Below, in pieces: positions 1 through 11,873 of a stretch of 11,873 nucleotides of DNA. Below the pieces are notes generated by a model. It searched no databases. It was not told the origin of the DNA and saw only the letters and a list, made by a program, of their open reading frames with translations. The number at the start of each line of letters is the position of its first letter. Position 1 is the first letter of the stretch. The position numbers and the translations under genes were made by a program. The stretch is taken from IMG/VR virus record IMGVR_UViG_2695420792_000013, positions 1 to 11,873 of that record; one strand, 5' to 3'. The DNA comes from a virus (Duplodnaviria > Heunggongvirae > Uroviricota > Caudoviricetes).

Positions 1-318
1 ATGAAAAAGATAGCTGCTATATCATTAATTAGTATTTTTATTATGTCTGGTTGTGCTGTGCATAATGATGAGACAAGTATCGGTAAATTTGGTCTTGCAT
101 ATAAAAGTAATATTCAGCGTAAACTCGATAACCAATACTACACCGAAGCCGAAGCTTCTTTAGCCAGGGGTAGAATATCTGGTGCAGAAAATATAGTAAA
201 AAATGATGCAACTCATTTCTGTGTTACTCAGGGCAAAAAAATGCAAATAGTTGAGCTGAAGACAGAAGGTGTAGGATTACATGGTGTCGCTCGTCTGACA
301 TTCAAATGTGGAGAGTGA
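1..318 (+). CDS. Putative lipoprotein, host-side flanking gene
   Basis: 105-aa ORF with an N-terminal hydrophobic signal-like segment ending in a cysteine (IFIMSGC), consistent with a lipobox. Lies outside the prophage, left of the att core. Size and position would fit yegR beside the K-12 P2 remnant, but that is recalled synteny only. Confidence 0.55.
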   Translation: MKKIAAISLISIFIMSGCAVHNDETSIGKFGLAYKSNIQRKLDNQYYTEAEASLARGRISGAENIVKNDATHFCVTQGKKMQIVELKTEGVGLHGVARLTFKCGE

Positions 319-380
319 GAATATTTTTTGGTAAGCGTCAAATATGCGCGTTCTGGCTGTGCGTAGCCGGAACCTGTGGG

Positions 381-413
381 AGCACGATGCCGATAAGTGA
401 AAGGCATCGTGCT
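381..413. repeat. Perfect 11-bp inverted repeat (AGCACGATGCC-N11-GGCATCGTGCT)
   Basis: Seen directly in the sequence. Sits in host-side DNA between the lipoprotein gene and the att core. No U-tract follows on either strand, so it is not a classic intrinsic terminator. Confidence 0.5.
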
Positions 414-477
414 ATGAAGGAGGATTCTATCGATGTGGTCAATGGAAGACGGTTACCAGAGATAGGGCTTATGCATA

Positions 478-504
478 AAAAAATAAGCCCGTGTAAGGGA
501 GATT
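478..504. other. P2-type attachment-site core (attL junction)
   Basis: AAAAAATAAGCCCGTGTAAGGGAGATT matches the 27-bp P2 att core as I recall it. It lies about 80 bp beyond the 3' end of int, as in P2 attP. Confidence 0.5.
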
Positions 505-583
505 TAGGGTGTCACCAGTAGGGGCTTTCAACGGTACAATGCGGGTTTGAGCGGCATAAATTACCACTGAAAGCCCTTAAACG

Positions 584-1597
584 TTACTCTACTGTGGACA
601 CTGTGTGGACACTCTCGGCCTCAGTACCACCTCTTAGCGGATTAAGAGAAATGGCGTCCTGAAGGTACTCTGGCGCAAAATGAGCGTAAACCATAGTTTG
701 CTCAATCCGCGTGTGACCTAGTATCCGTTGTAGCGTGATAATACTTCCTCCATTAATCATGAAATGAGTGGCAAAGCTGTGCCTTAGTGCATGTGTGGCT
801 TGCCCCATTGGCAAATCCGGTTTTATTGCTTTCATTGTTCGTCTGAAGCGAGGGTAATCAGCATCAGGGAATAAAAAACCTCGTTTGTTATCCGCGATCA
901 TTTTGGCAACAGCCTCTGAGATCGGGACGGTGCGTGGTTTGTTTGTTTTCGTTTTAACAAACGTGACGCGGTTATGGATGATATTTTCTGCTTTCAAACG
1001 AGCTGCTTCTCCCCAACGTGCTCCAGTACTCAGGCAAAGAATCGCAATCTTTTTGTTGTCGCCGTCAAGAGCAGCAAGCAGTAAGGCAATTTCTTCCTGC
1101 GTGAGATAGCCTGTGTCTGGTTTTTCCTCCTTAAGCCTTTTTGTCCCTCTGATAGGGTGCTCACCAAAGAATAACTCCGCTTCAATCAGGGCTGTAAACA
1201 TGCCGCTAATACATGTTAAATCACGATTGATACTCGAAGGTTTAATACCCTGACTTCTTCGGGTGGCGCAGTACTGGCTGATAAGCGATTTCGTAATTTG
1301 AAATGCGCATGGGTCATTCGTTATTTTTGTGAAGATTTCAATTTTTCCAAGATTAGATTTCCCATGCTCTTCGTGTTTACCCTTTAAATCCCACCAGATC
1401 TGTGTCAGCTCCGACAGACGTCGCTTGTCTGTTGGTTTTGATAGCCATTCTTTATTGTGGTGGTTGTACAACGTGTATTTCTCGAAAGCGACAGCTTCGC
1501 TTTTCTTATCAAACTTCCTACGGATGCGTTTTCCATTACGTCCAGTAGGGCGGATGTCCACTTCATATCGACCATCATCGAGTTTTTTGATTGCCAT
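584..1597 (-). CDS. int: Tyrosine site-specific integrase, P2 Int-like
   Basis: 337-aa ORF, the same length as P2 Int. Carries a tyrosine-recombinase C-terminal signature (HALRHSFATH ... LGHTRIEQTMVYAH). Sits next to the att core and is co-oriented with the repressor gene. Confidence 0.9.
   Translation of the reverse strand: MAIKKLDDGRYEVDIRPTGRNGKRIRRKFDKKSEAVAFEKYTLYNHHNKEWLSKPTDKRRLSELTQIWWDLKGKHEEHGKSNLGKIEIFTKITNDPCAFQITKSLISQYCATRRSQGIKPSSINRDLTCISGMFTALIEAELFFGEHPIRGTKRLKEEKPDTGYLTQEEIALLLAALDGDNKKIAILCLSTGARWGEAARLKAENIIHNRVTFVKTKTNKPRTVPISEAVAKMIADNKRGFLFPDADYPRFRRTMKAIKPDLPMGQATHALRHSFATHFMINGGSIITLQRILGHTRIEQTMVYAHFAPEYLQDAISLNPLRGGTEAESVHTVSTVE
593..611. promoter_or_regulatory. 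Tandem TGTGGACA direct repeats, candidate Int arm-type binding sites
   Basis: Two exact TGTGGACA copies at 593-600 and 604-611, 11 bp apart, overlapping the 3' end of int next to the att core. Confidence 0.4.
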
Positions 1598-1651
1598 CAG
1601 AAAACCCTCCGAGTGGTGTGTTTTTTTGCGACTACTAATCGCTTTTTTCGT

Positions 1652-1672
1652 GGTGGCTGAAATTTAGCCACC
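1652..1672. repeat. Inverted repeat GGTGGCT-N7-AGCCACC in the C-int intergenic region
   Basis: Seen directly. A 12-bp perfect palindrome TGAATATATTCA follows at 1691-1702. Both lie between C and int and could be an attenuator or a protein-binding site. Confidence 0.35.
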
Positions 1673-1712
1673 AATAGTAGGCACTTGTGATGAATATATT
1701 CACGATGAATTG

Positions 1713-2012
1713 TTAACCAGTCTTTTGACCGGAGTGGGGTGACGTTGTTTCGTTTTGCCCAAAGTGTGCGAGAGCGGGCGCAATTTGCCCGGACTCAGGA
1801 GCGATCTGATTGGTCATGAACCATAAAGTGTATTTGGTGAATTGTGGGGTCTGCAGGATGTTCATCATGACATCTGTTGGAGGTGTTGAACGACCACTTT
1901 CATAGTAACTCAGCGTGCCATACGGAACCCCTGTTAAATCAGCAAGTTGTTGTCTGCTCAAATACTCTGATTTTCGCATTAAGACTATCTTCTCGCTTAT
2001 CGTGTTTGACAT
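1713..2012 (-). CDS. C: Immunity repressor, P2 C-like
   Basis: 99-aa ORF, the length of P2 C. Contains an HTH-like segment (LSRQQLADLTGVPYGTLSYYE). Divergent from cox and upstream of int in the same orientation, which is P2 immunity-region synteny. Confidence 0.75.
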   Translation of the reverse strand: MSNTISEKIVLMRKSEYLSRQQLADLTGVPYGTLSYYESGRSTPPTDVMMNILQTPQFTKYTLWFMTNQIAPESGQIAPALAHFGQNETTSPHSGQKTG

Positions 2013-2126
2013 GGTGTTTAGATCTCAATAGTATTTAGTTTAGATGTAGATTGTTTAGTGCTTGGATGTGGGCACTAAAAGGCATTATAAGACATTAAAC
2101 GCAATTCATGAGGGCTAGAGGACGAC
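2013..2126. promoter_or_regulatory. Divergent promoter/operator region (Pe/Pc-like)
   Basis: Intergenic region between divergent C and cox. Contains repeated TTTAG-containing units (about 2013-2021, 2032-2046, 2052-2060) and an 8-bp inverted repeat TTTAGTGC-N10-GCACTAAA (2054-2079). Exact -10/-35 boxes not assigned. Confidence 0.5.
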
Positions 2127-2402
2127 ATGAGCAAGCAAGTAACACTCATGACTGATGCGATTCCTTATCAGGAGTTCGCAAAACTAATAGGAAAATCGAC
2201 AGGAGCGGTTCGTCGGATGATCGATAAAGGAAAGCTGCCTGTAATTGATATGACCGATCCACAATCAGCTTCAGGTCGTGCAGGTGAATATTGGGTATAC
2301 CTTCCGGCATGGAATAACGGACTAAAACTGGCTTATGAAAGCCGCCCTAAAGAGATTCGTGACGGCTGGTTGATGTGGTTAGGTCTCGGTGAACCACGTT
2401 AA
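2127..2402 (+). CDS. cox: Cox-like excisionase / directionality factor and transcriptional regulator
   Basis: 91-aa ORF, the length of P2 Cox. First gene of the rightward early operon, directly opposite C. Confidence 0.75.
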   Translation: MSKQVTLMTDAIPYQEFAKLIGKSTGAVRRMIDKGKLPVIDMTDPQSASGRAGEYWVYLPAWNNGLKLAYESRPKEIRDGWLMWLGLGEPR

Positions 2403-2412
2403 GGAGAACCGT

Positions 2413-2583
2413 ATGAATGAGCCTCGTTGTATTGCTCAGTTACTGCGTAACGAAAGCCCCAGGGCGATTGACTTCACCATCACCCATGGTAAGGGGCGTA
2501 AGGGAATCATTATCCGCACCAAAAAACAGAGTCCGTTAAAAAAGGCTCTGACCTTTCTGAAAAGCCGGAGGGTATGGAAATGA
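2413..2583 (+). CDS. Small hypothetical protein (P2 orf78 position)
   Basis: Listed ORF is 2389-2583. The start is more likely the ATG at 2413, which follows an AAGGAG Shine-Dalgarno at 2401-2406. Positional equivalent of the small ORF between cox and B. Confidence 0.45.
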   Translation: MNEPRCIAQLLRNESPRAIDFTITHGKGRKGIIIRTKKQSPLKKALTFLKSRRVWK

Positions 2584-3080
2584 CAGTGATGACGCTCAAT
2601 CTCGTTGAAAAACAGCCAGCAGCTATGCGCCGGATAATTGGTAAGCATCTTGCCGTTCCTCGCTGGCAGGATACATGTGATTATTATAATCAGATGATGG
2701 AGCGCGAACGGCTAACAGTTTGCTTTCATGCGCAGTTAAAACAGCGTCACGCAACGATGCGTTTTGAAGAAATGAACGACGTCGAACGTGAACGACTGGT
2801 ATGTGCAATTGATGAATTGCGTGGGGCATTCTCAAAACGTCGTCAGGTCGGTGCAAGTGAGTATGCATATATTAGTTTTTTAACAGTCAGTCAGCGTCGT
2901 ACTTTATTTATGCATGCCGGATTGACTGAAAAAGAATTCAACCAGCCATACTGGCGAATTAATGAAGAGTCATGTTACTGGCGTGATGCTTTATTCCGTG
3001 CATTACGTGAATTATTCAGCCTGTTTGAGTATGCACCGACAATTCTGACATCGGTAAAACCAGAGCAATATCTGCATTAA
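2574..3080 (+). CDS. B: Replication protein B-like
   Basis: 168-aa ORF (P2 B is about 166 aa as I recall) in the expected slot between cox and A. Start could be one of the first three Met codons. Confidence 0.7.
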   Translation: MEMTVMTLNLVEKQPAAMRRIIGKHLAVPRWQDTCDYYNQMMERERLTVCFHAQLKQRHATMRFEEMNDVERERLVCAIDELRGAFSKRRQVGASEYAYISFLTVSQRRTLFMHAGLTEKEFNQPYWRINEESCYWRDALFRALRELFSLFEYAPTILTSVKPEQYLH

Positions 3081-3134
3081 GTAATTAACCAGAGTTTTTA
3101 ACGCACTTAATTGTGCGGGGCTTCTTTTTGCCTG

Positions 3135-3368
3135 GAGAAAGTCATGCATACAGTTTCTGAAAATCAGTGCGGTAAATACGCATTACTGCTGCAACAGGCC
3201 AGAACCGAAGCACAGGCCGACGCAGCGACGCGCTTTTCTTCTCATCTTGACGCCATGATTCGCCACATCACAAAGGCGGAGTTATCCCGCGTGGAGATAG
3301 TCGAGCTGCTCAGTCAGGAGTCGGAAAAATTTCACAACATCGGATTGTCTCGCGGGGAGGTGCTTTGA
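3135..3368 (+). CDS. Hypothetical early protein (P2 orf80 position)
   Basis: Listed ORF starts at 3111. The ATG at 3135 is preceded by GGAGAAAGTC and is the more plausible start. The stop overlaps the next start (ATGA-type coupling). Confidence 0.5.
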
Positions 3369-3670
3369 TGTCCTGTTCTCGTTCAGTTGTTTTACTGAAC
3401 AATGCCTTAAAAATCGCCGTTATGAAAAATGGCGATTTGTCTCTTATTCAACTTGGTCTTGATAAAGAAAAACGCGAAATAACTGAATCTGTTATCGCGA
3501 TTTATCAGAGTGAATTAAACCTCCTGTCTGATGTGGTCAATTTACTTGTTAAACGCGCTGTATTTCACAAGCAAATTTCCTCCGTGGATGAACTGACGAC
3601 ATTAACGACAGAAATCGCCAGCTATTGCGCTGATGAATTTAAAAAACTGAACGACAAAAGGAACTGGTAA
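3365..3670 (+). CDS. Hypothetical early protein (P2 orf81 position)
   Basis: 101-aa ORF, tightly packed with its neighbours in the early operon. Confidence 0.55.
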
Positions 3671-3894
3671 TGCCGGACAACGTAGATTTTATTCAGGAAC
3701 AACAGGCTGAATTACTGGAGCGCCAGATTAACGCGGCAAGGGTAAAACATTGCGGTGCTTCTGCGCTGGTTTGCGAAGAGTGTGACGCGCCAATACCTGC
3801 TGCCCGTCGTGCGGCTTATCCGTCAGCCACGCGTTGTGTTTCCTGTCAGGCAGTCTTTGAAGCAAAAAACAAACATTACCGGAGAACGGCATGA
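3670..3894 (+). CDS. C4-type zinc-finger protein, TraR/DksA family (P2 orf82 position)
   Basis: 74-aa ORF with CxxC-N17-CxxC (CEECDAPIPAARRAAYPSATRCVSCQ), typical of phage TraR-like proteins. Confidence 0.7.
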   Translation: MPDNVDFIQEQQAELLERQINAARVKHCGASALVCEECDAPIPAARRAAYPSATRCVSCQAVFEAKNKHYRRTA

Positions 3895-4166
3895 GTATTC
3901 GTATTGAAATTGGCGAACGTTATGTCGTTACCAGTGACAGCTTTCAGTTTATTCTCCACGAGAAAAAGAGAGCGGAAAGCGGTAAAAACGCCGGTCAGGA
4001 ATGGCTGGCGGTGGTTGGTTATTACCCGAAATTAAGCCAGCTCGTTTCCGGCCTGATGCATCACGATATTCTGACCGGAAGCGCAAAATCTTTTGCCGAT
4101 TTAAACGTGCAGGTTGAGCAACTCAGCAGGCGTTGTTCAGAGGCTTTTGGCTCATATGGACGTTAA
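3891..4166 (+). CDS. Hypothetical early protein (P2 orf83 position)
   Basis: 91-aa ORF with start overlapping the previous stop, directly upstream of A. Confidence 0.5.
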   Translation: MSIRIEIGERYVVTSDSFQFILHEKKRAESGKNAGQEWLAVVGYYPKLSQLVSGLMHHDILTGSAKSFADLNVQVEQLSRRCSEAFGSYGR

Positions 4167-6279
4167 AGCCTCCGGGCGTTTTGTCCCTCCGTCAGCATTT
4201 GCCGCAGACACCGGTAAGACGTTTACCGGTGCTTATGCATGGAACGCGCCACGCGAGGCTGTCGGGCGCGAAAGACCCCTTACACGTGACGAGATGCGTC
4301 AGGTGCAAGGTGTTTTATCCACGATAAATCGCCTGCCTTATTTTTTGCGCTCGCTGTTTACTTCACGCTATGACTACATCCGGCGCAATAAAAGCCCGGT
4401 GCACGGGTTTTATTTCCTCACATCCACTTTTCAGCGTCGTTTATGGCCGCGTATTGAGCGTGTGAATCAGCGCCATGAAATGAACACCGACGCGTCGTTG
4501 CTGTTTTTGGCAGAGCGTGACCACTATGCACGCCTGCCGGGAATGAATGACAAGGAGCTGAAAAAGTTTGCCGCCCGTATCTCATCGCAGCTTTTCATGA
4601 TGTATGAGGAACTCTGCGATGCCTGGGTGGATGCGCATGGCGAAAAAGAATCGCTGTTTACGGATGAGGCGCAGGCTCACCTGTATGGTCATGTTGCTGG
4701 CGCTGCACGTGCTTTCAATATTTCCCCTCTCTACTGGAAAAAATACCGTAAAGGGCAGATGACCACGAGGCAGGCATATTCTGCCATTGCCCGTCTGTTT
4801 AACGATGAGTGGTGGACTCATCAGCTTAAAGGCCAGCGTATGCGTTGGCATGAGGCGTTACTGATTGCTGTCGGGGAGGTAAATAAAGACCGTTCACCTT
4901 ATGCCAGTAAACATGCTATTCGTGATGTGCGTGCGCGCCGCCAGGCAAATCTGGAATTTCTTAAATCGTGTGACCTTGAAAACAGGGAAACCGGCGAACG
5001 CATCGACCTTATCAGTAAGGTGATGGGCAGTATTTCTAATCCAGAAATTCGCCGGATGGAGCTGATGAACACCATCGCCGGAATTGAGCGTTACGCCGCC
5101 GCAGAGGGTGATGTGGGGATGTTTATCACGCTGACCGCGCCGTCAAAGTATCACCCGACACGTCAGGTCGGAAAAGGCGAAAGTAAAACCGTCCAGCTTA
5201 ATCACGGCTGGAACCATGAGGCATTTAATCCAAAGGATGCGCAGCGTTATCTCTGCCGTATCTGGAGCCTGATGCGCACGGCATTCAAGGATAATGATTT
5301 ACAGGCCTACGGTTTGCGTGTCGTTGAGCCACACCACGACGGAACGCCGCACTGGCATATGATGCTTTTTTGTAATCCACGCCAGCGTAACCAGATTATT
5401 GAAATCATGCGTCGCTATGCGCTCAAAGAGGATGGCGACGAAAGAGGAGCCGCGCGAAACCGTTTTCAGGCAAAACACCTTAACCGGGGCGGTGCTGCGG
5501 GGTATATCGCGAAATACATCTCAAAAAACATCGATGGCTATGCACTGGATGGTCAGCTCGATAACGATACCGGCAGACCGCTGAAAGACACTGCTGCGGC
5601 TGTTACCGCATGGGCGTCAACGTGGCGCATCCCACAATTTAAAACGGTTGGTCTGCCGACAATGGGGGCTTACCGTGAACTACGCAAATTGCCTCGCGGC
5701 GTCAGCATTGCTGATGAGTTTGACGAGCGCGTCGAGGCTGCACGCGCCGCCGCAGACAGTGGTGATTTTGCGTTATATATCAGCGCGCAGGGTGGGGCAA
5801 ATGTCCCGCGCGATTGTCAGACTGTCAGGGTCGCCCGTAGTCCGTCGGATGAAGTTAACGAGTACGAGGAAGAAGTCGAGAGAGTGGTCGGCATTTACGC
5901 GCCGCATCTCGGCGCGCGTCATATTCATATCACCAGAACGACGGACTGGCGCATTGTGCCGAAAGTTCCGGTCGTTGAGCCTTTGACTTTAAAAAGCGGC
6001 ATCGCCGCGCCTCGGAGTCCTGTCAATAACTGTGGAAAGCCTGCCAGCAGTGATACTTCGTTACCGGCTCCCACGCCTTCTGAACATGCCGCAGCAGTGC
6101 TTAATCTGGTAGATGACGGTGTTATCGAATGGAGTGACCCGGAGGTTGTGAGGATTCTAATGGTAGTGTTAAAAGGAGGGGAAGCATACAAAATCAACAA
6201 CGAAGACGATTATCACCGCAAAGTGCCGAACAAGTCAGCTCAGTGGCTAAAACAAAGAATAAATAGAGTGGGTAACTAA
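4114..6279 (+). CDS. A: Rolling-circle replication initiation endonuclease, P2 gpA-like
   Basis: 721-aa ORF. HUH motif HWHMML at 5350-5367. Paired catalytic tyrosines in YIAKYISK (Y codons at 5503-5505 and 5515-5517), the phiX174/P2 gpA signature. True start may be the ATG at 4156, which would minimise overlap with the upstream ORF. Confidence 0.9.
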   Translation: MSNSAGVVQRLLAHMDVKASGRFVPPSAFAADTGKTFTGAYAWNAPREAVGRERPLTRDEMRQVQGVLSTINRLPYFLRSLFTSRYDYIRRNKSPVHGFYFLTSTFQRRLWPRIERVNQRHEMNTDASLLFLAERDHYARLPGMNDKELKKFAARISSQLFMMYEELCDAWVDAHGEKESLFTDEAQAHLYGHVAGAARAFNISPLYWKKYRKGQMTTRQAYSAIARLFNDEWWTHQLKGQRMRWHEALLIAVGEVNKDRSPYASKHAIRDVRARRQANLEFLKSCDLENRETGERIDLISKVMGSISNPEIRRMELMNTIAGIERYAAAEGDVGMFITLTAPSKYHPTRQVGKGESKTVQLNHGWNHEAFNPKDAQRYLCRIWSLMRTAFKDNDLQAYGLRVVEPHHDGTPHWHMMLFCNPRQRNQIIEIMRRYALKEDGDERGAARNRFQAKHLNRGGAAGYIAKYISKNIDGYALDGQLDNDTGRPLKDTAAAVTAWASTWRIPQFKTVGLPTMGAYRELRKLPRGVSIADEFDERVEAARAAADSGDFALYISAQGGANVPRDCQTVRVARSPSDEVNEYEEEVERVVGIYAPHLGARHIHITRTTDWRIVPKVPVVEPLTLKSGIAAPRSPVNNCGKPASSDTSLPAPTPSEHAAAVLNLVDDGVIEWSDPEVVRILMVVLKGGEAYKINNEDDYHRKVPNKSAQWLKQRINRVGN

Positions 6280-6443
6280 ACTCGCTTTGTTTTAGTTTGT
6301 GAATATATGAGACTGGACGCTGAAACCTGACGAGTAGGTTTGTGAGAATGATGATCTATTTGCATTGAGATAATATGTTAAGTTATAGGCTTTCTGCGTT
6401 AGTGCACTTCCCCCCCCCAACCGTAGCAGGGGGAGGTAAAGGG

Positions 6444-7298
6444 TTAAGCAAATCTTAATATTTCTTTAGGTATGGGAGTTGCACAAGCTAATCTTCGTCT
6501 TTCTAACATTAAAGGATCCTTAGTAATTTTCAAATTATTATTGACGGATAAATGTGATTTTAAGGATGACAACCAGAGCTTAATGAACTCAAAGACATAT
6601 TTACCCTTAATGGCTCTTTCGTACGGTAATTCATTGAAGAATGAAATCAATGCTTTTACATCCTCTGAGTCTTCATTTACTTCATAATCTATTAACGTAG
6701 CATTATCCTTGATTGAGATATTTTTATACTCAATATTGATAACTGAAGATATTTTATTGTAGAATTTTGTTTTCCCGTTTGCATTATGATTTACAAATAG
6801 AGGTCGGCATAATTCTTTTGCTAACTTTTGAAATAGTTGGAAGTCGGACTCAAAATCTTTTTTGATACGCGCCAATAAATCAGACTGTGTTATATCCATT
6901 TTGAACTCGTCCTTTAAATAGCTTTTTGTAGAGGAAGAGTTAATAATATAGTTTTCAATTGAATAACATGAAAGAGTAACAATGTTATCAGAATTATGCT
7001 CAAATAGGTCAAAGTCATGATCTACAAAAAAGTAGCAATTGCTTAATATTTCTTGATCATTATGTTGAATTGCATGCTCGTATAACTCAATTATCTGTTT
7101 TTTTCCTTTCGCCACAAGGTGGCCTGCATTAGCATACTCTGGATTGTGTTTCATCCATTCATCGTATACAGGGTAATCATCAACACCTTCAAAAACAAAA
7201 ATTTTATCGAAGGATGATGTTTTAAGTAATATCTCTTGCTTTAACGGATTTCTCGAAAAAGCTTCTTTTTTCATAGTATGTAGGAGATTGTTACTCAT
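6444..7298 (-). CDS. TOPRIM-like (DUF4435-like) nuclease, AriB-like effector candidate
   Basis: 284-aa ORF. TOPRIM-style motifs: IFVFEGVDD (Glu codon at 7188-7190) and FFVDHDFD (DxD at about 7014-7022). Start ATG shares one base with the upstream ATPase stop. Strongly AT-rich coding sequence. Confidence 0.7.
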   Translation of the reverse strand: MSNNLLHTMKKEAFSRNPLKQEILLKTSSFDKIFVFEGVDDYPVYDEWMKHNPEYANAGHLVAKGKKQIIELYEHAIQHNDQEILSNCYFFVDHDFDLFEHNSDNIVTLSCYSIENYIINSSSTKSYLKDEFKMDITQSDLLARIKKDFESDFQLFQKLAKELCRPLFVNHNANGKTKFYNKISSVINIEYKNISIKDNATLIDYEVNEDSEDVKALISFFNELPYERAIKGKYVFEFIKLWLSSLKSHLSVNNNLKITKDPLMLERRRLACATPIPKEILRFA

Positions 7299-8764
7299 CA
7301 GACACTACCCTTTCGTACTTTCATAGCAGTTGCATAAGGGTCTAGCTCATTGTCAAATATGAATGGTGAATGCGTTATGGCAATTATTTGCCTAACATTT
7401 TCACCCGCATTCAAATCTGGTAATATCATCCGTTGCCACTCTATCGATAACGAAAGTTCCGGTTCATCTATTAATATTATTTTAGGGGTATTATCATTAA
7501 GATAAATCGTAGCCATTAGCGAAATTACTTGTTTCTCACCTGAAGATAAGTCATTAAGAGAGATGCGATCTCCTGTATATGTATCTTTTACGATAACTTC
7601 TAATCTTTGAGGATCAAATTTTAGAGATTTAGAATCACCTGCTGATGAAAGATATTTATCACAAACAGCAACGAATTTCTCAATTTTTGACTCTTGCTCT
7701 TTTGTTTCTTGTATAACCGAGTTTAATTGAGTTAAAAAATATTTCAAGTAAGTGATGTTTTTTATTTCATCTTTGTTATATAGCAATTTAAGCGAATCAA
7801 TTAAAGATTTCTTTTTTGATTCAGATGCTCTTTTTTCTCGCAAATTTGTACCAGTATCCTCAACTCGATTAAGGAATCTTTCCAAATCCTCTATAGAAGG
7901 TAGTGCATTTTGTTCTTTAGCTATCCGCTCATTGTTACCATATTTAATTAAATCCTCAAGCATTTTGGCACTTAAAGATCTATAGCCAAGGTTTGATGTC
8001 CTTTCAATTTCTAAAGTTAGACCTTTTAAAGCATCTTCGACATCCTTTAACCCATATGAAATGCCATCACGTTGTAGTTTCATCCCTCTTTTTCTACCAA
8101 ACATGCGAGGGTGAAGATTTTCTCTTTCTTCCCTAGGTGTCGTCTCAAAACTTTTTTCTACCCTTCGATATGTTGGTAGAAATATAACGTCTAAATCCCT
8201 AAGCGCTTCAGCAACCACTCTAAAATTATTATTTTTAGAGTAATGCATTTTTAAATTATGCTGTTCCTTATTCTTCATTTTATTAACTATGTTGTCTTTT
8301 AGTTCTCTTAGAAAATGATTTATATAATCCTTTGGGTATTTTACGGTATTATATAGGTCATTGACTAAAGCATCATCATTGAATTCATTTTGCTTCGAGT
8401 CAATTAAAGTCTTCGCAAACTTGGTAATATCACGATCATCCCAAAATGACTCATTAAGAGAAAATCTTTCATTGAGGAATGCTTTTATTTCACCAAAAGG
8501 TATTAAAGATGCTCTTTCATTTTTAATTTCAACCTCCTCATGACCAAGAATCTTTATGAATATTGATTTAAAATCAATTCTCATAAGGTTTGTAAAATCT
8601 TGCTCGAGAAGAAGTCTTATAGCATTAAGTATGGTTGTTTTTCCTGCGCCGTTCTCGGATACGAAAACTGTTGTCTTGCCTTTCATTTTCATAGTTATAT
8701 CTTTATAACCATGAACTCCTGTCATTCTAAAATATTCAATCGGGTAATTATTACGTGTAGTCAT
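7298..8764 (-). CDS. ABC-type ATPase with coiled-coil insertion, AriA-like
   Basis: 488-aa ORF. Walker A ENGAGKTT (codons at about 8633-8650). Signature-like LSSGEKQ. Walker B IILIDEPE (D-E codons at 7463-7468). H-loop ITHSP. A long K/E/L-rich middle segment suggests a coiled coil. AGGAGA Shine-Dalgarno 4 nt upstream of the ATG. AT-rich. Confidence 0.75.
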   Translation of the reverse strand: MTTRNNYPIEYFRMTGVHGYKDITMKMKGKTTVFVSENGAGKTTILNAIRLLLEQDFTNLMRIDFKSIFIKILGHEEVEIKNERASLIPFGEIKAFLNERFSLNESFWDDRDITKFAKTLIDSKQNEFNDDALVNDLYNTVKYPKDYINHFLRELKDNIVNKMKNKEQHNLKMHYSKNNNFRVVAEALRDLDVIFLPTYRRVEKSFETTPREERENLHPRMFGRKRGMKLQRDGISYGLKDVEDALKGLTLEIERTSNLGYRSLSAKMLEDLIKYGNNERIAKEQNALPSIEDLERFLNRVEDTGTNLREKRASESKKKSLIDSLKLLYNKDEIKNITYLKYFLTQLNSVIQETKEQESKIEKFVAVCDKYLSSAGDSKSLKFDPQRLEVIVKDTYTGDRISLNDLSSGEKQVISLMATIYLNDNTPKIILIDEPELSLSIEWQRMILPDLNAGENVRQIIAITHSPFIFDNELDPYATAMKVRKGSV

Positions 8765-9010
8765 TATGTCTCCTTTCGTCTACATTACTAAAATCAGTTA
8801 GTCAATTTTCTTAAAAACTAAAGTAACAGAAGCTTTCGATATATTTGAACAGCTAATTCATACAGCAAAGTCAAACTTAATTCAACTATCCATCAGGCGG
8901 TGCACGATTCGTACAGCGCAACCCACAGTTGATTCAACTCGGATTATAATAATTGCAGATATTTTTTGCGATTTCCAGTGGCTACTAGTCATTTTATTGT
9001 GATCCCTAAA

Positions 9011-9029
9011 CCACCTCCTGGGGAGGTGG
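9011..9029. repeat. Subterminal palindrome of the IS200-like element (left)
   Basis: Perfect 8-bp stem with 3-nt loop, seen directly. Confidence 0.6.
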
Positions 9030-9117
9030 TGATTGATCCTGTAAGGCTATAGCCTGAAGAATGCCCATGTCGGAATATCTCTGCTTACTCACCACAAGTA
9101 AAAGGAGACAAACTGAC

Positions 9118-9552
9118 ATGGGGTTTTACAGAAGTTCATCATATGTATATTGGCGTTGCAAATATCACATAGTCTGGACGGCAAAGTACCGTTTTAGGAT
9201 CCTGAGGGATAAATTGGGCAAGGAGCTGTACAGAACCATCTATATTCTTTGCGGAATAAAAGATTGTGAGGTTCTGGAGTTAAATGTACAGGCAGATCAT
9301 GTGCATCTTGTCGTAATAGTGCCGCCAAAAATCTCAATATCTACTCTGATGGGGCACCTGAAAGGTCGCAGTGCAATCAGACTCTACAATCGATTCCCGC
9401 ATATCAGGAAGAAGTTATGGGGAAACCATTTTTGGTCGTGGGGTTACTTTGTTGATACGGTAGGCGTGAACGAAGAAATTATCAGACGATATGCGAGGTA
9501 TCAGGAAAAGATGGAGCAAACACATGAACAGCAGATGGAGTTGCTAGAGTAG
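9118..9552 (+). CDS. tnpA: IS200/IS605-family Y1 (HUH) transposase TnpA
   Basis: Motifs CKYHIVW, HUH in HVHLVV, and catalytic Tyr context WGYFVDTVG. Listed ORF starts at 9061, but the ATG at 9118 follows an AAGGAGA Shine-Dalgarno and gives a family-typical 144 aa. A GC hairpin at 9572-9589 follows the stop. Confidence 0.8.
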   Translation: MGFYRSSSYVYWRCKYHIVWTAKYRFRILRDKLGKELYRTIYILCGIKDCEVLELNVQADHVHLVVIVPPKISISTLMGHLKGRSAIRLYNRFPHIRKKLWGNHFWSWGYFVDTVGVNEEIIRRYARYQEKMEQTHEQQMELLE

Positions 9553-9600
9553 AAAACGGAATATGACATTCGCCCCCCTTATAGGGGGCATTCTGAAAAG

Positions 9601-9619
9601 CCACCTCCTCAGGAGGTGG
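9601..9619. repeat. Subterminal palindrome of the IS200-like element (right)
   Basis: Perfect 8-bp stem with 3-nt loop, near-identical to the left copy. Confidence 0.6.
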
Positions 9620-9752
9620 TCTTTTACTTCTACTGTGTTTGATGCATGAATTTGCATTCGAGTTTTTCTGAGCGTTGCCTTGTCAGTTGTAGGTCTTGTG
9701 GGGTTGGGGTGGCCTAATGCAACTGCATTATTAGCGCCCTATGAAGCGGGCG

Positions 9753-9771
9753 GGCGAGGCGGGGAAAGCAC
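9753..9771. other. P2-type cos site (19-nt cohesive-end sequence)
   Basis: GGCGAGGCGGGGAAAGCAC matches the P2 cohesive end as I recall it. The flanking sequence resembles the P2 genome termini, and it lies just upstream of the 3' end of portal gene Q, as in P2. Confidence 0.6.
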
Positions 9772-9913
9772 TGCGCGCTGGCGGTGGTGCTGATTTTATT
9801 TTTTCAGCGTCTGAGCGCGTTGTGATGGCGTTTAGATTGTTCGCCGGGGCGTTGGTGTGTATGCGGGCTGTTTTGTGCGGTGGTGAGCGTGTGAGGGCGT
9901 GATGGCGGGGTGT

Positions 9914-9935
9914 AAAAAAGCCGCCCGCAGGCGGC
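9914..9935 (-). terminator. Intrinsic terminator downstream of Q (minus strand)
   Basis: On the minus strand: GCCGCC-TGCG-GGCGGC stem-loop followed by TTTTTT, immediately after the Q stop codon at 9941-9943. Confidence 0.6.
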
Positions 9936-9940
9936 GATGT

Positions 9941-10440
9941 TCAGCCGTTGTCAGTGTCCAGTGAGTAGTTTTTAAAGCGGATGACCTCCTGACCGAGCCA
10001 GCCGTTTATCTCGCGGATCCTGTCCTGTAACGGGATAAGCTCATTGCGGACAAAGACCTTTGCCACTTTCTCAATATCACCCAGCGACCCGACGTTCTCC
10101 GGCTTGCCGCCCATCAACTGAAAGGGGATGCGGTGCGCGTCCAGCAGGTCTGCGGCGCTGGCTTTTTTGATATTAAAAAAATCATCCTTCGTTGCCACTT
10201 CACTGAGCGGGATAATTTTAATGCCGTCGGCTTTCCCTTGTGGGGCATAGAGAAACAGGTTTTTAAAGTTGTTGCGGCCTTTCGACTTCACCATGTTTTC
10301 GCGGAGCATTTCGATATCGTTGCGATCCTGCACGGCATCGGTGACGTACATGATGTATCCGGCATGTGCGCCGTTTTCGTAATACTTGCGGCGGAACAGC
10401 GTGGCCGACTCATTCAGCCAGAGCCAAAGGTCGTATTGGT
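9941..10440 (-). pseudogene. Q: Portal protein Q-like gene, C-terminal fragment only (5'-truncated)
   Basis: Listed ORF 9941-10351 (136 aa). The frame stays open upstream to about 10456 without a plausible start. Position and orientation next to cos match P2 Q, which is about 340 aa, so most of the N-terminus is missing. 5' boundary approximate. Confidence 0.6.
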
Positions 10441-10623
10441 GGCAGACGTCCGAAACTCACCGCGAGTGAGTGGGAGCAGGTCGGACGGTTGCTGGATGCG
10501 GGGGAATCTCGTCAACGCGTGGCGCTGATTTTTGATATTGGCCTGTCCACGCTCTATAAGAAATTCCCCTCATCAGCGACAAAGAATAAATTGTGTCATC
10601 CCTTAGCCAACCGGGACAAATAG
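10414..10623 (+). pseudogene. Serine DNA invertase (Gin/Pin/Hin family), C-terminal HTH fragment
   Basis: KGRIGGRRPKLTASEWEQVGRLLDAGESRQRVALIFDIGLSTLYKKFP resembles the C-terminal DNA-binding domain of Gin/Hin-type invertases. No N-terminal catalytic domain is present. The listed ORF start at 10366 is probably fortuitous. 5' boundary approximate. Confidence 0.65.
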
Positions 10624-10682
10624 CCTGACATCTCCGGCACAACTGAAAATACCACTCACCCATTAACCACGGAGTTAAACGG

Positions 10683-11873
10683 ATGAGTGACTATCATCAC
10701 GGCGTGCAGGTGCTGGAGATTAACGACGGCCCCCGCGTCATTTCCACCGTATCCACTGCCATTGTCGGCATGGTCTGCACGGCCAGCGATGCGGATGCGG
10801 AAACCTTCCCCCTCAATAAACCTGTGCTGATTACCAATGTGCAGAGCGCAATTGCAAAGGCCGGTAAAAAAGGCACGCTGGCGGCATCGTTGCAGGCCAT
10901 CGCTGACCAGTCAAAACCGGTCACCGTTGTCGTGCGCGTGGAAGACGGCACCGGTGATGACGAGGAAACGAAACTCGCGCAGACCGTTTCCAATATCATC
11001 GGCACCACCGACGAAAACGGTCAGTACACCGGACTAAAAGCCCTGCTGGCGGCGGAGTCGGTTACCGGTGTTAAACCGCGTATTCTCGGTGTGCCGGGAC
11101 TGGACACCAAAGAGGTGGCGGTTGCACTGGCATCAGTCTGTCAGAAGCTGCGCGCTTTCGGGTATATCAGCGCATGGGGCTGTAAAACCATTTCCGAGGT
11201 GAAAGCCTACCGCCAGAATTTCAGCCAGCGAGAGCTGATGGTCATCTGGCCGGATTTCCTCGCATGGGATACGGTCGCCAGTACCACCGCCACCGCGTAT
11301 GCCACCGCCCGTGCGCTGGGTCTGCGTGCCAAAATCGACCAGGAGCAGGGCTGGCATAAAACGCTGTCCAACGTCGGGGTAAACGGTGTTACCGGCATCA
11401 GTGCCTCTGTATTCTGGGATTTGCAGGAGTCCGGCACCGATGCTGACCTGTTGAACGAGTCAGGTGTCACAACGCTGATTCGCCGTGACGGTTTCCGCTT
11501 CTGGGGTAACCGTACCTGCTCTGATGACCCGCTGTTCCTCTTTGAAAACTACACCCGCACCGCGCAGGTGCTGGCCGACACGATGGCTGAGGCGCACATG
11601 TGGGCGGTGGACAAGCCCATCACTGCAACGCTGATTCGCGACATCGTTGACGGCATCAATGCCAAATTCCGTGAGCTGAAAACAAACGGCTATATCGTGG
11701 ATGCGACCTGCTGGTTCAGCGAAGAATCCAACGATGCGGAAACCCTCAAGGCCGGAAAACTGTATATCGACTACGACTATACACCGGTGCCTCCTCTCGA
11801 AAACCTGACCCTGCGCCAGCGTATTACCGATAAATACCTGGCAAATCTGGTCACCTCGGTTAACAGCAATTAA
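10683..11873 (+). CDS. FI: Contractile tail sheath protein, P2 FI-like
   Basis: 396-aa ORF, the length of P2 FI. The N-terminus MSDYHHGVQVLEI matches my recollection of P2 FI. GGAG Shine-Dalgarno 8 nt upstream. The TAA stop coincides with the window end. Confidence 0.9.
   Translation: MSDYHHGVQVLEINDGPRVISTVSTAIVGMVCTASDADAETFPLNKPVLITNVQSAIAKAGKKGTLAASLQAIADQSKPVTVVVRVEDGTGDDEETKLAQTVSNIIGTTDENGQYTGLKALLAAESVTGVKPRILGVPGLDTKEVAVALASVCQKLRAFGYISAWGCKTISEVKAYRQNFSQRELMVIWPDFLAWDTVASTTATAYATARALGLRAKIDQEQGWHKTLSNVGVNGVTGISASVFWDLQESGTDADLLNESGVTTLIRRDGFRFWGNRTCSDDPLFLFENYTRTAQVLADTMAEAHMWAVDKPITATLIRDIVDGINAKFRELKTNGYIVDATCWFSEESNDAETLKAGKLYIDYDYTPVPPLENLTLRQRITDKYLANLVTSVNSN

Follow-up and report, generated by a model that had tools for sequence, protein, structure and literature searches.

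A P2 remnant in Escherichia coli K-12 was reportedly described by Barreiro and Haggard-Ljungquist in 1992, and spontaneous large deletions in lacI between short direct repeats are said to have been found by Farabaugh et al. in 1978 and by Albertini et al. in 1982. According to a RefSeq note, the K-12 remnant (ogrK / yegZ) lies at the same locus as the prophage studied here. Furthermore, Rousset et al. 2022 (PMC9122126) place a P2 defence hotspot between gpA and gpQ, next to cos.

The DNA analysed in the present study, a stretch of 11,873 bp hereafter called the window, is part of a P2-like prophage adjoining yegR in E. coli. An earlier note, made from the letters alone, had proposed that a deletion fused a truncated portal gene Q to a truncated invertase gene in this element. 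By comparison with the intact prophage at yegR of the ETEC strain B7A (NZ_CP035812.1), whose locus, L002, provides the reference coordinates used throughout, we find that the feature is very probably the scar of a single 14,345-bp deletion inside the prophage.

Results

The prophage and its setting

All 11,873 bases of the window are 100% identical to the end of contig CYEH01000001.1 of assembly GCA_001284685.2, in which the flanking genes (the gat operon, yegS and yegR) are those of E. coli. The window follows the P2 gene order, int - C - cox - B - A - variable hotspot - cos - Q ... FI, collinear both with the prophage annotated in B7A and with records of phage P2. Pfam matches in the window comprise Int_N/Phage_integrase, Phage_GPA, a partial Phage_portal and sheath domains. 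The genes and sites outside the junction region are as follows:

584-1597, minus strand: integrase (ORF map and Pfam scan)
After the integrase, in this order: C-type repressor, cox and B (ORF map and Pfam scan)
4156-6279: gpA replication protein, 707 aa
6444-7298, minus strand: AriB (DUF4435 protein) of the PARIS defence system (Pfam, PADLOC)
7298-8764, minus strand: AriA (ABC-type ATPase) of the PARIS defence system (Pfam, PADLOC)
9061-9552: tnpA (Y1 transposase) of the IS200/IS605 family, inserted between the PARIS cassette and cos (element at ~8900-9640)
9753-9771, plus strand: P2-type cos cohesive-end sequence, GGCGAGGCGGGGAAAGCAC, adjoining the Q fragment
10683-11873, plus strand: intact tail-sheath gene FI, 396 aa (Pfam sheath domains)

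The AriA/AriB cassette sits at the position that Rousset et al. (PMC9122126) give for the P2 defence hotspot, and the pair survives the deletion. The linear phage record KF322032 (fiAA91-ss) starts exactly at the cos position of the window, and cosL is annotated there. A strong hairpin at 9600-9620 lies just downstream of the IS200 tnpA. On the other side, the region upstream of FI is the same as in intact relatives; the P2 annotation puts the pF activator site and the start of the F operon within 100 bp before FI, and that region is kept in the window.

The earlier note held that integration, immunity, replication and cos remained, together with the tail genes on the FI side. Integrase, repressor and cos are all in place; replication is uncertain, given the state of gpA. 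Residues 1-675 of this protein match the canonical 761-aa gpA at 97.5%, whereas 32 unrelated residues stand in for the last 86, the divergence starting at window position ~6153, and the boundary of the hotspot cargo therefore lies inside the 3' end of A. Since the same 707-aa protein is common to relatives with intact portal and head genes, this change predates the deletion. As for the tail genes, FI is intact, and FII to ogr lie beyond the contig end.

Two observations concern the chromosomal surroundings. In the host yegR region, positions 171-477 hold a cluster of 18 of the 28 differences from the intact relative L015, and window 1-495 is 100% identical to E. coli LR-45, which would place the prophage in another chromosomal background than its closest intact relatives, unless the yegR flank had recombined. 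In B7A, the prophage (L002 3169-38311) is bordered by yegR on the left and by pflB-focA-ycaO on the right instead of yegQ; the right part of the window is 99.4% identical to B7A and 99.93% identical to yegQ-flanked relatives, and another locus, L011, is a P2-like remnant at the pfl locus. These data fit a large chromosomal inversion in B7A by recombination between P2-like prophages at yegR/yegQ and at pflA/pflB.

The junction between Q and the invertase gene

The alignment of the window to the complete B7A prophage splits into two blocks, as the earlier note had anticipated. The left block, window 1-10421, corresponds to L002 3169-13585 (99.7%) and the right block, window 10417-11873, to L002 27926-29382 (99.4%); the two are collinear and in the intact phage are separated by 14,345 bp, a distance close to the roughly 15 kb first estimated for one deletion. 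A base-by-base three-way alignment shows that the left exact-match run ends at 10421 and that the right one begins at 10417, well inside the interval 10400-10450 in which the end points had been sought, and the microhomology to be inspected at the junction turned out to be the pentamer GCCAG. Between the blocks there is no inserted sequence, and there is no IS element at the junction. The features around this point are the following:

9920-9935, minus strand: terminator-like hairpin and T run, immediately after the Q stop
9941-10421, minus strand: 3' fragment of the portal gene Q, codons 186-344 and stop (translation against the 344-aa B7A portal; end of blastn block)
10366-10416, plus strand: antisense-of-portal stretch through which the invertase frame stays open as far back as a GTG (chimeric 85-aa ORF)
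10417-10421: deletion junction with the 5-bp microhomology GCCAG, one copy retained
10417-10623, plus strand: 3' fragment of a Gin-type serine invertase gene, codons 130-197 and stop (against the 197-aa B7A protein)
10422-10459, minus strand: continuation of the portal frame into invertase-derived DNA, 12 sense codons, closed by the stop at 10457-10459

In intact B7A the two copies of GCCAG are located at L002 13581-13585 and 27926-27930. The former comprises, on the opposite strand, the last base of codon 185 of Q, codon 186 and the first base of codon 187; the latter falls in codons 130-131 of the invertase gene, on the plus strand and in the same orientation. Identical break coordinates were obtained from 14 other relatives (draft genomes and read-set assemblies), that is, from 15 independent ones with B7A, and a composite of L014 (left) and the yegQ-flanked L023 (right) also gives 14,345 bp. 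The blocks are >99% identical over 10.4 kb and 1.46 kb, and a microhomology of at least 5 bp is to be expected at only ~0.5% of random junctions, as estimated both analytically and empirically with the prophage's own sequence; for these two reasons the two-block pattern is not due to chance. The scar shows the marks of a short-homology deletion, namely collinear flanks, a direct repeat at both ends of which one copy is kept, and no mobile element or site-specific recombination site.

According to the B7A annotation, the lost interval contains the 5' part of Q together with P, O, N, M, L and X, then the lysis genes Y and K (holin, endolysin), lysA, lysB and lysC, and R, S, V, W, J, I, H and G. 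The invertible alternative tail-fibre segment and the 5' part of the invertase gene have also gone. Thus the terminase, scaffold, capsid, lysis, baseplate and tail-fibre genes whose absence had been remarked upon all belong to this single interval, and the complete late gene set of a functional, inducible phage was not found in the window.

The junction is known from one short-read draft assembly, 1.45 kb from the contig end, and an artefact of assembly, scaffolding or gap closing would be one alternative, in which case the strain would really carry one intact prophage or else a pair of P2-like ones. Only 27 bp separate the FI stop from the end of the source contig, which falls in the first codons of FII (L017 17719-17745). 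This position suggests a repeat, for instance another P2-like element with FII to ogr in common, or a further rearrangement in the source genome; moreover, the chromosome of the relative B7A has several P2-like matches. The two sides of the junction, however, share 5 bp only, far less than any assembler overlap or k-mer, so that a false join is judged unlikely; the sequence contains no Ns, the contigs of draft relatives break at or near the repeat of the invertible segment and not at the junction positions, and real deletions of the same kind exist in complete genomes. An artefact is therefore very unlikely, and we infer that the junction is real in the cell, a 5-bp overlap being far too short for an assembler mis-join.

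The Q fragment

The stop codon of Q is found at 9941-9943, and the minus-strand frame runs open to 10456, where it meets the in-frame stop at 10457-10459. Similarity to the 344-aa portal of the intact relative begins at W186 and covers only the C-terminal 159 codons; codons 1-185 are absent, and the P gene upstream is deleted as well. The lack of an N-terminal part and the frame open to 10456 had both been recognised from the letters. Pfam Phage_portal (PF04860) is matched at profile positions 144-276 of 321 only, with 28.2 bits against a cut-off of 39.1 bits. The 12 sense codons upstream of W186 contain no start codon, and the first possible start in the portal frame is an ATG at 10351, which gives a 136-aa ORF. 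Neither a full-length portal gene nor a full-length portal domain with a valid start codon occurs in the window; the presence of such a gene would have spoken against the deletion according to the earlier note. In the P2 operon layout the Q fragment would have lost its P-side promoter.

Codon W186 of the portal, the one at the junction (window 10418-10420), is a stop in two otherwise complete prophages, TAG in L004 and TGA in L009, at ~5932-5934 of each locus. It lies in a Dcm site (CCAGG, plus strand) of the intact phage, which the deletion in the window destroys, and the change in L004 from CCAGG to CTAGG (amber) is a classical 5-methylcytosine deamination transition. A Dcm-site hotspot was considered and kept as a side note only, given that the other deletions end elsewhere and that the opal mutant L009 changes an unmethylated C.

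Age, distribution and other truncations of Q

A 37-mer across the junction had no match in GTDB species representatives and none in JGI metagenome contigs. Of 5,426 complete E. coli genomes, many match each side and none extends across the junction. Among the contigs examined with an identical gpA (33 blocks) or FI (25 blocks), the junction was present in the source contig only; the other contigs reaching these genes have a full-length portal or the 197-aa invertase. The prophage part of the window is ~99.9% identical to intact relatives, with 10 differences from the intact L015, between 2939 and 10109, and one difference from L023 in the right block (10496). This near-identity, combined with a single carrier, points to a recent deletion that, within the data covered, is restricted to one strain.

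The 136-aa portal ORF is present in 261 blocks of the public collection, and the ten of them that were listed include six other distinct deletion junctions and three prophages with a split portal gene. The partners of these six junctions are FI (twice), the invertase gene, a tail-fibre gene, the baseplate region and ogr, with overlaps of 2-12 bp. With LR-45 added to the six among the matches listed, there are at least seven other independent junctions that truncate Q. In L003, L005, L007, L008, L010, L011 and L012 the junction lies at ~5930-6000 of each locus. Projected onto L002, the end points are:

L010: portal 13521, partner 22706
L011: portal 13522, partner 28671
L003: portal 13526, partner 28570
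L008 and L012: portal 13530, partner 34593
L005: portal 13584, partner 27752
L007: portal 13623, partner a tail-fibre gene
LR-45 (L001, 6984-6987): portal 13864, partner 27722

The portal end points of four of the seven fall within 10 bp (L002 13521-13530) and that of L005 within 1 bp of the window's, in a sample that is small and biased, an identical 136-aa ORF having been required, which confines the portal end point to ~145 bp. Partner end points lie in L002 27722-28671 in four of seven. Much of the apparent clustering is explained by the look-up itself, because it required the identical ORF. Portal truncation is rare among complete-genome records, 1,614 of 1,653 (97.6%) keeping at least 80% of Q, and the truncation points among the matches listed there are scattered (nt 175, 841, 943 and 947). 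Deletions from mid-Q to the invertase gene or the 5' part of FI might be recurrent in P2-like prophages of E. coli, reflecting either a deletion-prone architecture or a selected remnant, and we consider this proposal unproven and unlikely. If it were true, the selected remnant would keep int, cox, C, B, A, the defence hotspot, cos and the F tail operon, would measure ~17 kb, roughly half of the P2 genome, and could in principle be excised and cos-packaged by a co-resident P2-like helper.

The junction in L005 bears on a further alternative, in which the window arose in two steps, from an earlier deletion of the L005 kind, joining the same position of Q to about codon 72 of the invertase gene, and then from a small second deletion. 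The portal end points differ by 1 bp (L002 13584 vs 13585), the invertase end point of L005 is 174 bp upstream, and a second deletion at TGGC would yield the window sequence. L005, however, belongs to another P2-like lineage, ~96-97% identical, with SNPs in the retained portal part and a different hotspot cargo, and no close relative of the window was seen to carry an intermediate structure; a single event is the more parsimonious account, and two steps are very unlikely.

One end point inside an invertase gene, and three independent portal-invertase fusions (the window, L005 and LR-45), could also be taken to mean that the phage's own Gin-like invertase cut a pseudo-crossover site in Q and a site in its own gene. 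In B7A the true crossover sites, a pair of 27-bp inverted repeats, occupy L002 25653-25679 and 27457-27483; the nearer of them is ~445 bp away from the invertase-side end point, and the three fusions end at different positions of the invertase gene (L002 27722, 27752 and 27926). Moreover, the end points match the 27-bp sites at 13-14 of 27 positions at best, which is the mode for random positions of the prophage. An invertase-mediated deletion was rejected on this ground, its end points fitting crossover sites no better than random positions do, and it is extremely unlikely. An IS-mediated deletion was rejected as well, since the only IS, IS200, is ~870 bp from the junction and occurs in the intact relatives L013-L015 and L018 too.

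The invertase fragment

The surviving residues of the invertase, A130-K197, correspond to the last part of helix E, then the linker and the DNA-binding HTH domain. Pfam places HTH_7 on the fragment (E = 8e-14, profile positions 1-44 of 45) and detects no Resolvase catalytic domain (PF00239) there; set against the 197-aa B7A protein, the fragment lacks residues 1-129 and with them Ser9. The claim that only the C-terminal HTH of a Gin/Pin-like invertase stands on the plus strand is thus confirmed. The intact B7A invertase matches, over residues 1-182, the DNA-invertase chains 3uj3 (E = 4e-94) and 4m6f (1e-92), which we take to be phage Mu Gin, and the label Gin/Pin-like is accurate for this reason. 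At 10496, the sole difference of the right block from yegQ-flanked intact relatives, A stands in place of C, so that the HTH remnant has Asp where those relatives have Ala; this change could have been gained after inactivation of the invertase.

The possibility that this segment is an intact small gene had been raised as an objection to a deletion, and in its stronger form the remnant would be a functional, domesticated DNA-binding protein read from the GTG at 10366 or from an internal start. The 85-aa ORF does contain a complete HTH_7 domain. Codons 1-17 of this ORF read portal sequence in antisense, a scan of 9600-10800 revealed no promoter-like site, and no identical product is on record for the 85-aa GTG ORF, for a 44-aa version starting at TTG or for a 131-aa antisense ORF. 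Furthermore, the configuration is unique to one strain, so that there is no conservation arguing for function. The segment is a fragment of the 197-aa gene, nothing in the letters appears to speak for the 85-aa ORF as a gene, and a functional small protein is scarcely credible. The Q and invertase pieces are, by all appearances, dead pseudogene fragments.

Discussion

The comparison with intact relatives points to a single event inside the prophage, in which the two GCCAG copies, one in Q and the other in the invertase gene, would have been joined with one copy kept and the interval between them lost. Microhomology and collinearity are directly visible; the enzymology would be that of RecA-independent illegitimate recombination at short homology, by replication slippage or by microhomology-mediated end joining. 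To judge from the scar, short-homology illegitimate recombination is most likely the mechanism. Five base pairs are at the short end for microhomology-directed joins, and the repeat could be incidental.

As a consequence, three of the four late operons would have been lost, and with them portal, terminase, scaffold, capsid, lysis, baseplate and tail-fibre functions. With the late genes gone, the element should therefore be unable to make virions or to lyse the cell. In agreement with the defect in virion production that the earlier note had proposed, the absence of the late genes from the 5' part of Q through G predicts that it can no longer build heads or baseplates or package DNA. It retains int, C, cox, B, a homologue of A, AriA/AriB (PARIS), a copy of IS200, cos and at least FI. 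The prophage of the source strain would thus be cryptic, yet it carries immunity, an integrase, the PARIS anti-phage cassette and cos.

This is ordinary prophage decay, and features of this kind are already known. With the remainder of the element still ~99.9% identical to intact relatives, the window offers a clean, datable first step of such decay. In an annotation, what is left of Q and of the invertase gene should be labelled as pseudogene fragments, with no gene calls for the 136-aa and 85-aa ORFs; the importance beyond annotation is small.

The closest systems are the intact B7A prophage and its draft relatives (L013-L015, L018 and L023-L028), which are 99.4-99.9% identical to the window. 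They have in common with it the yegR side, int, C, cox, B and the truncated A, as well as AriA/AriB, IS200, cos, the 3' part of Q, the 3' part of the invertase gene and FI. What distinguishes them is the 14,345 bp between codon 185 of Q and codon 130 of the invertase gene, kept in the B7A-type relatives, which thereby have the full set of head, lysis, baseplate and tail-fibre genes, and missing from the window. In the Gin/Cin/Pin/Hin family, to which the comparison extends through the invertase, the intact relative's enzyme adjoins a 1.8-kb segment that lies within the tail-fibre genes between 27-bp inverted repeats; compared with a working Gin system, the window has residues 130-197 only, and nothing remains of the catalytic domain, the invertible segment or the two crossover sites.

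The deletions in lacI resemble that of the window in that they end in a short direct repeat of which one copy is kept, with no IS and no recombinase site. They differ in being laboratory-selected and mostly <1 kb, whereas the deletion in the window removes 14.3 kb in a natural isolate and its mechanism is read from the scar only. A parallel in decay is offered by the cryptic P2 remnants of E. coli LR-45 and K-12, which occupy the same yegR-yegQ locus and have likewise decayed by internal deletion; the one in LR-45 carries a truncated portal-invertase fusion with a 4-bp overlap and is the more degraded compared with the window. In LR-45, a complete genome, there are two further deletions and an IS3 insertion, and the region from int to A is lost; the window, in contrast, shows a single deletion in an otherwise near-pristine prophage.
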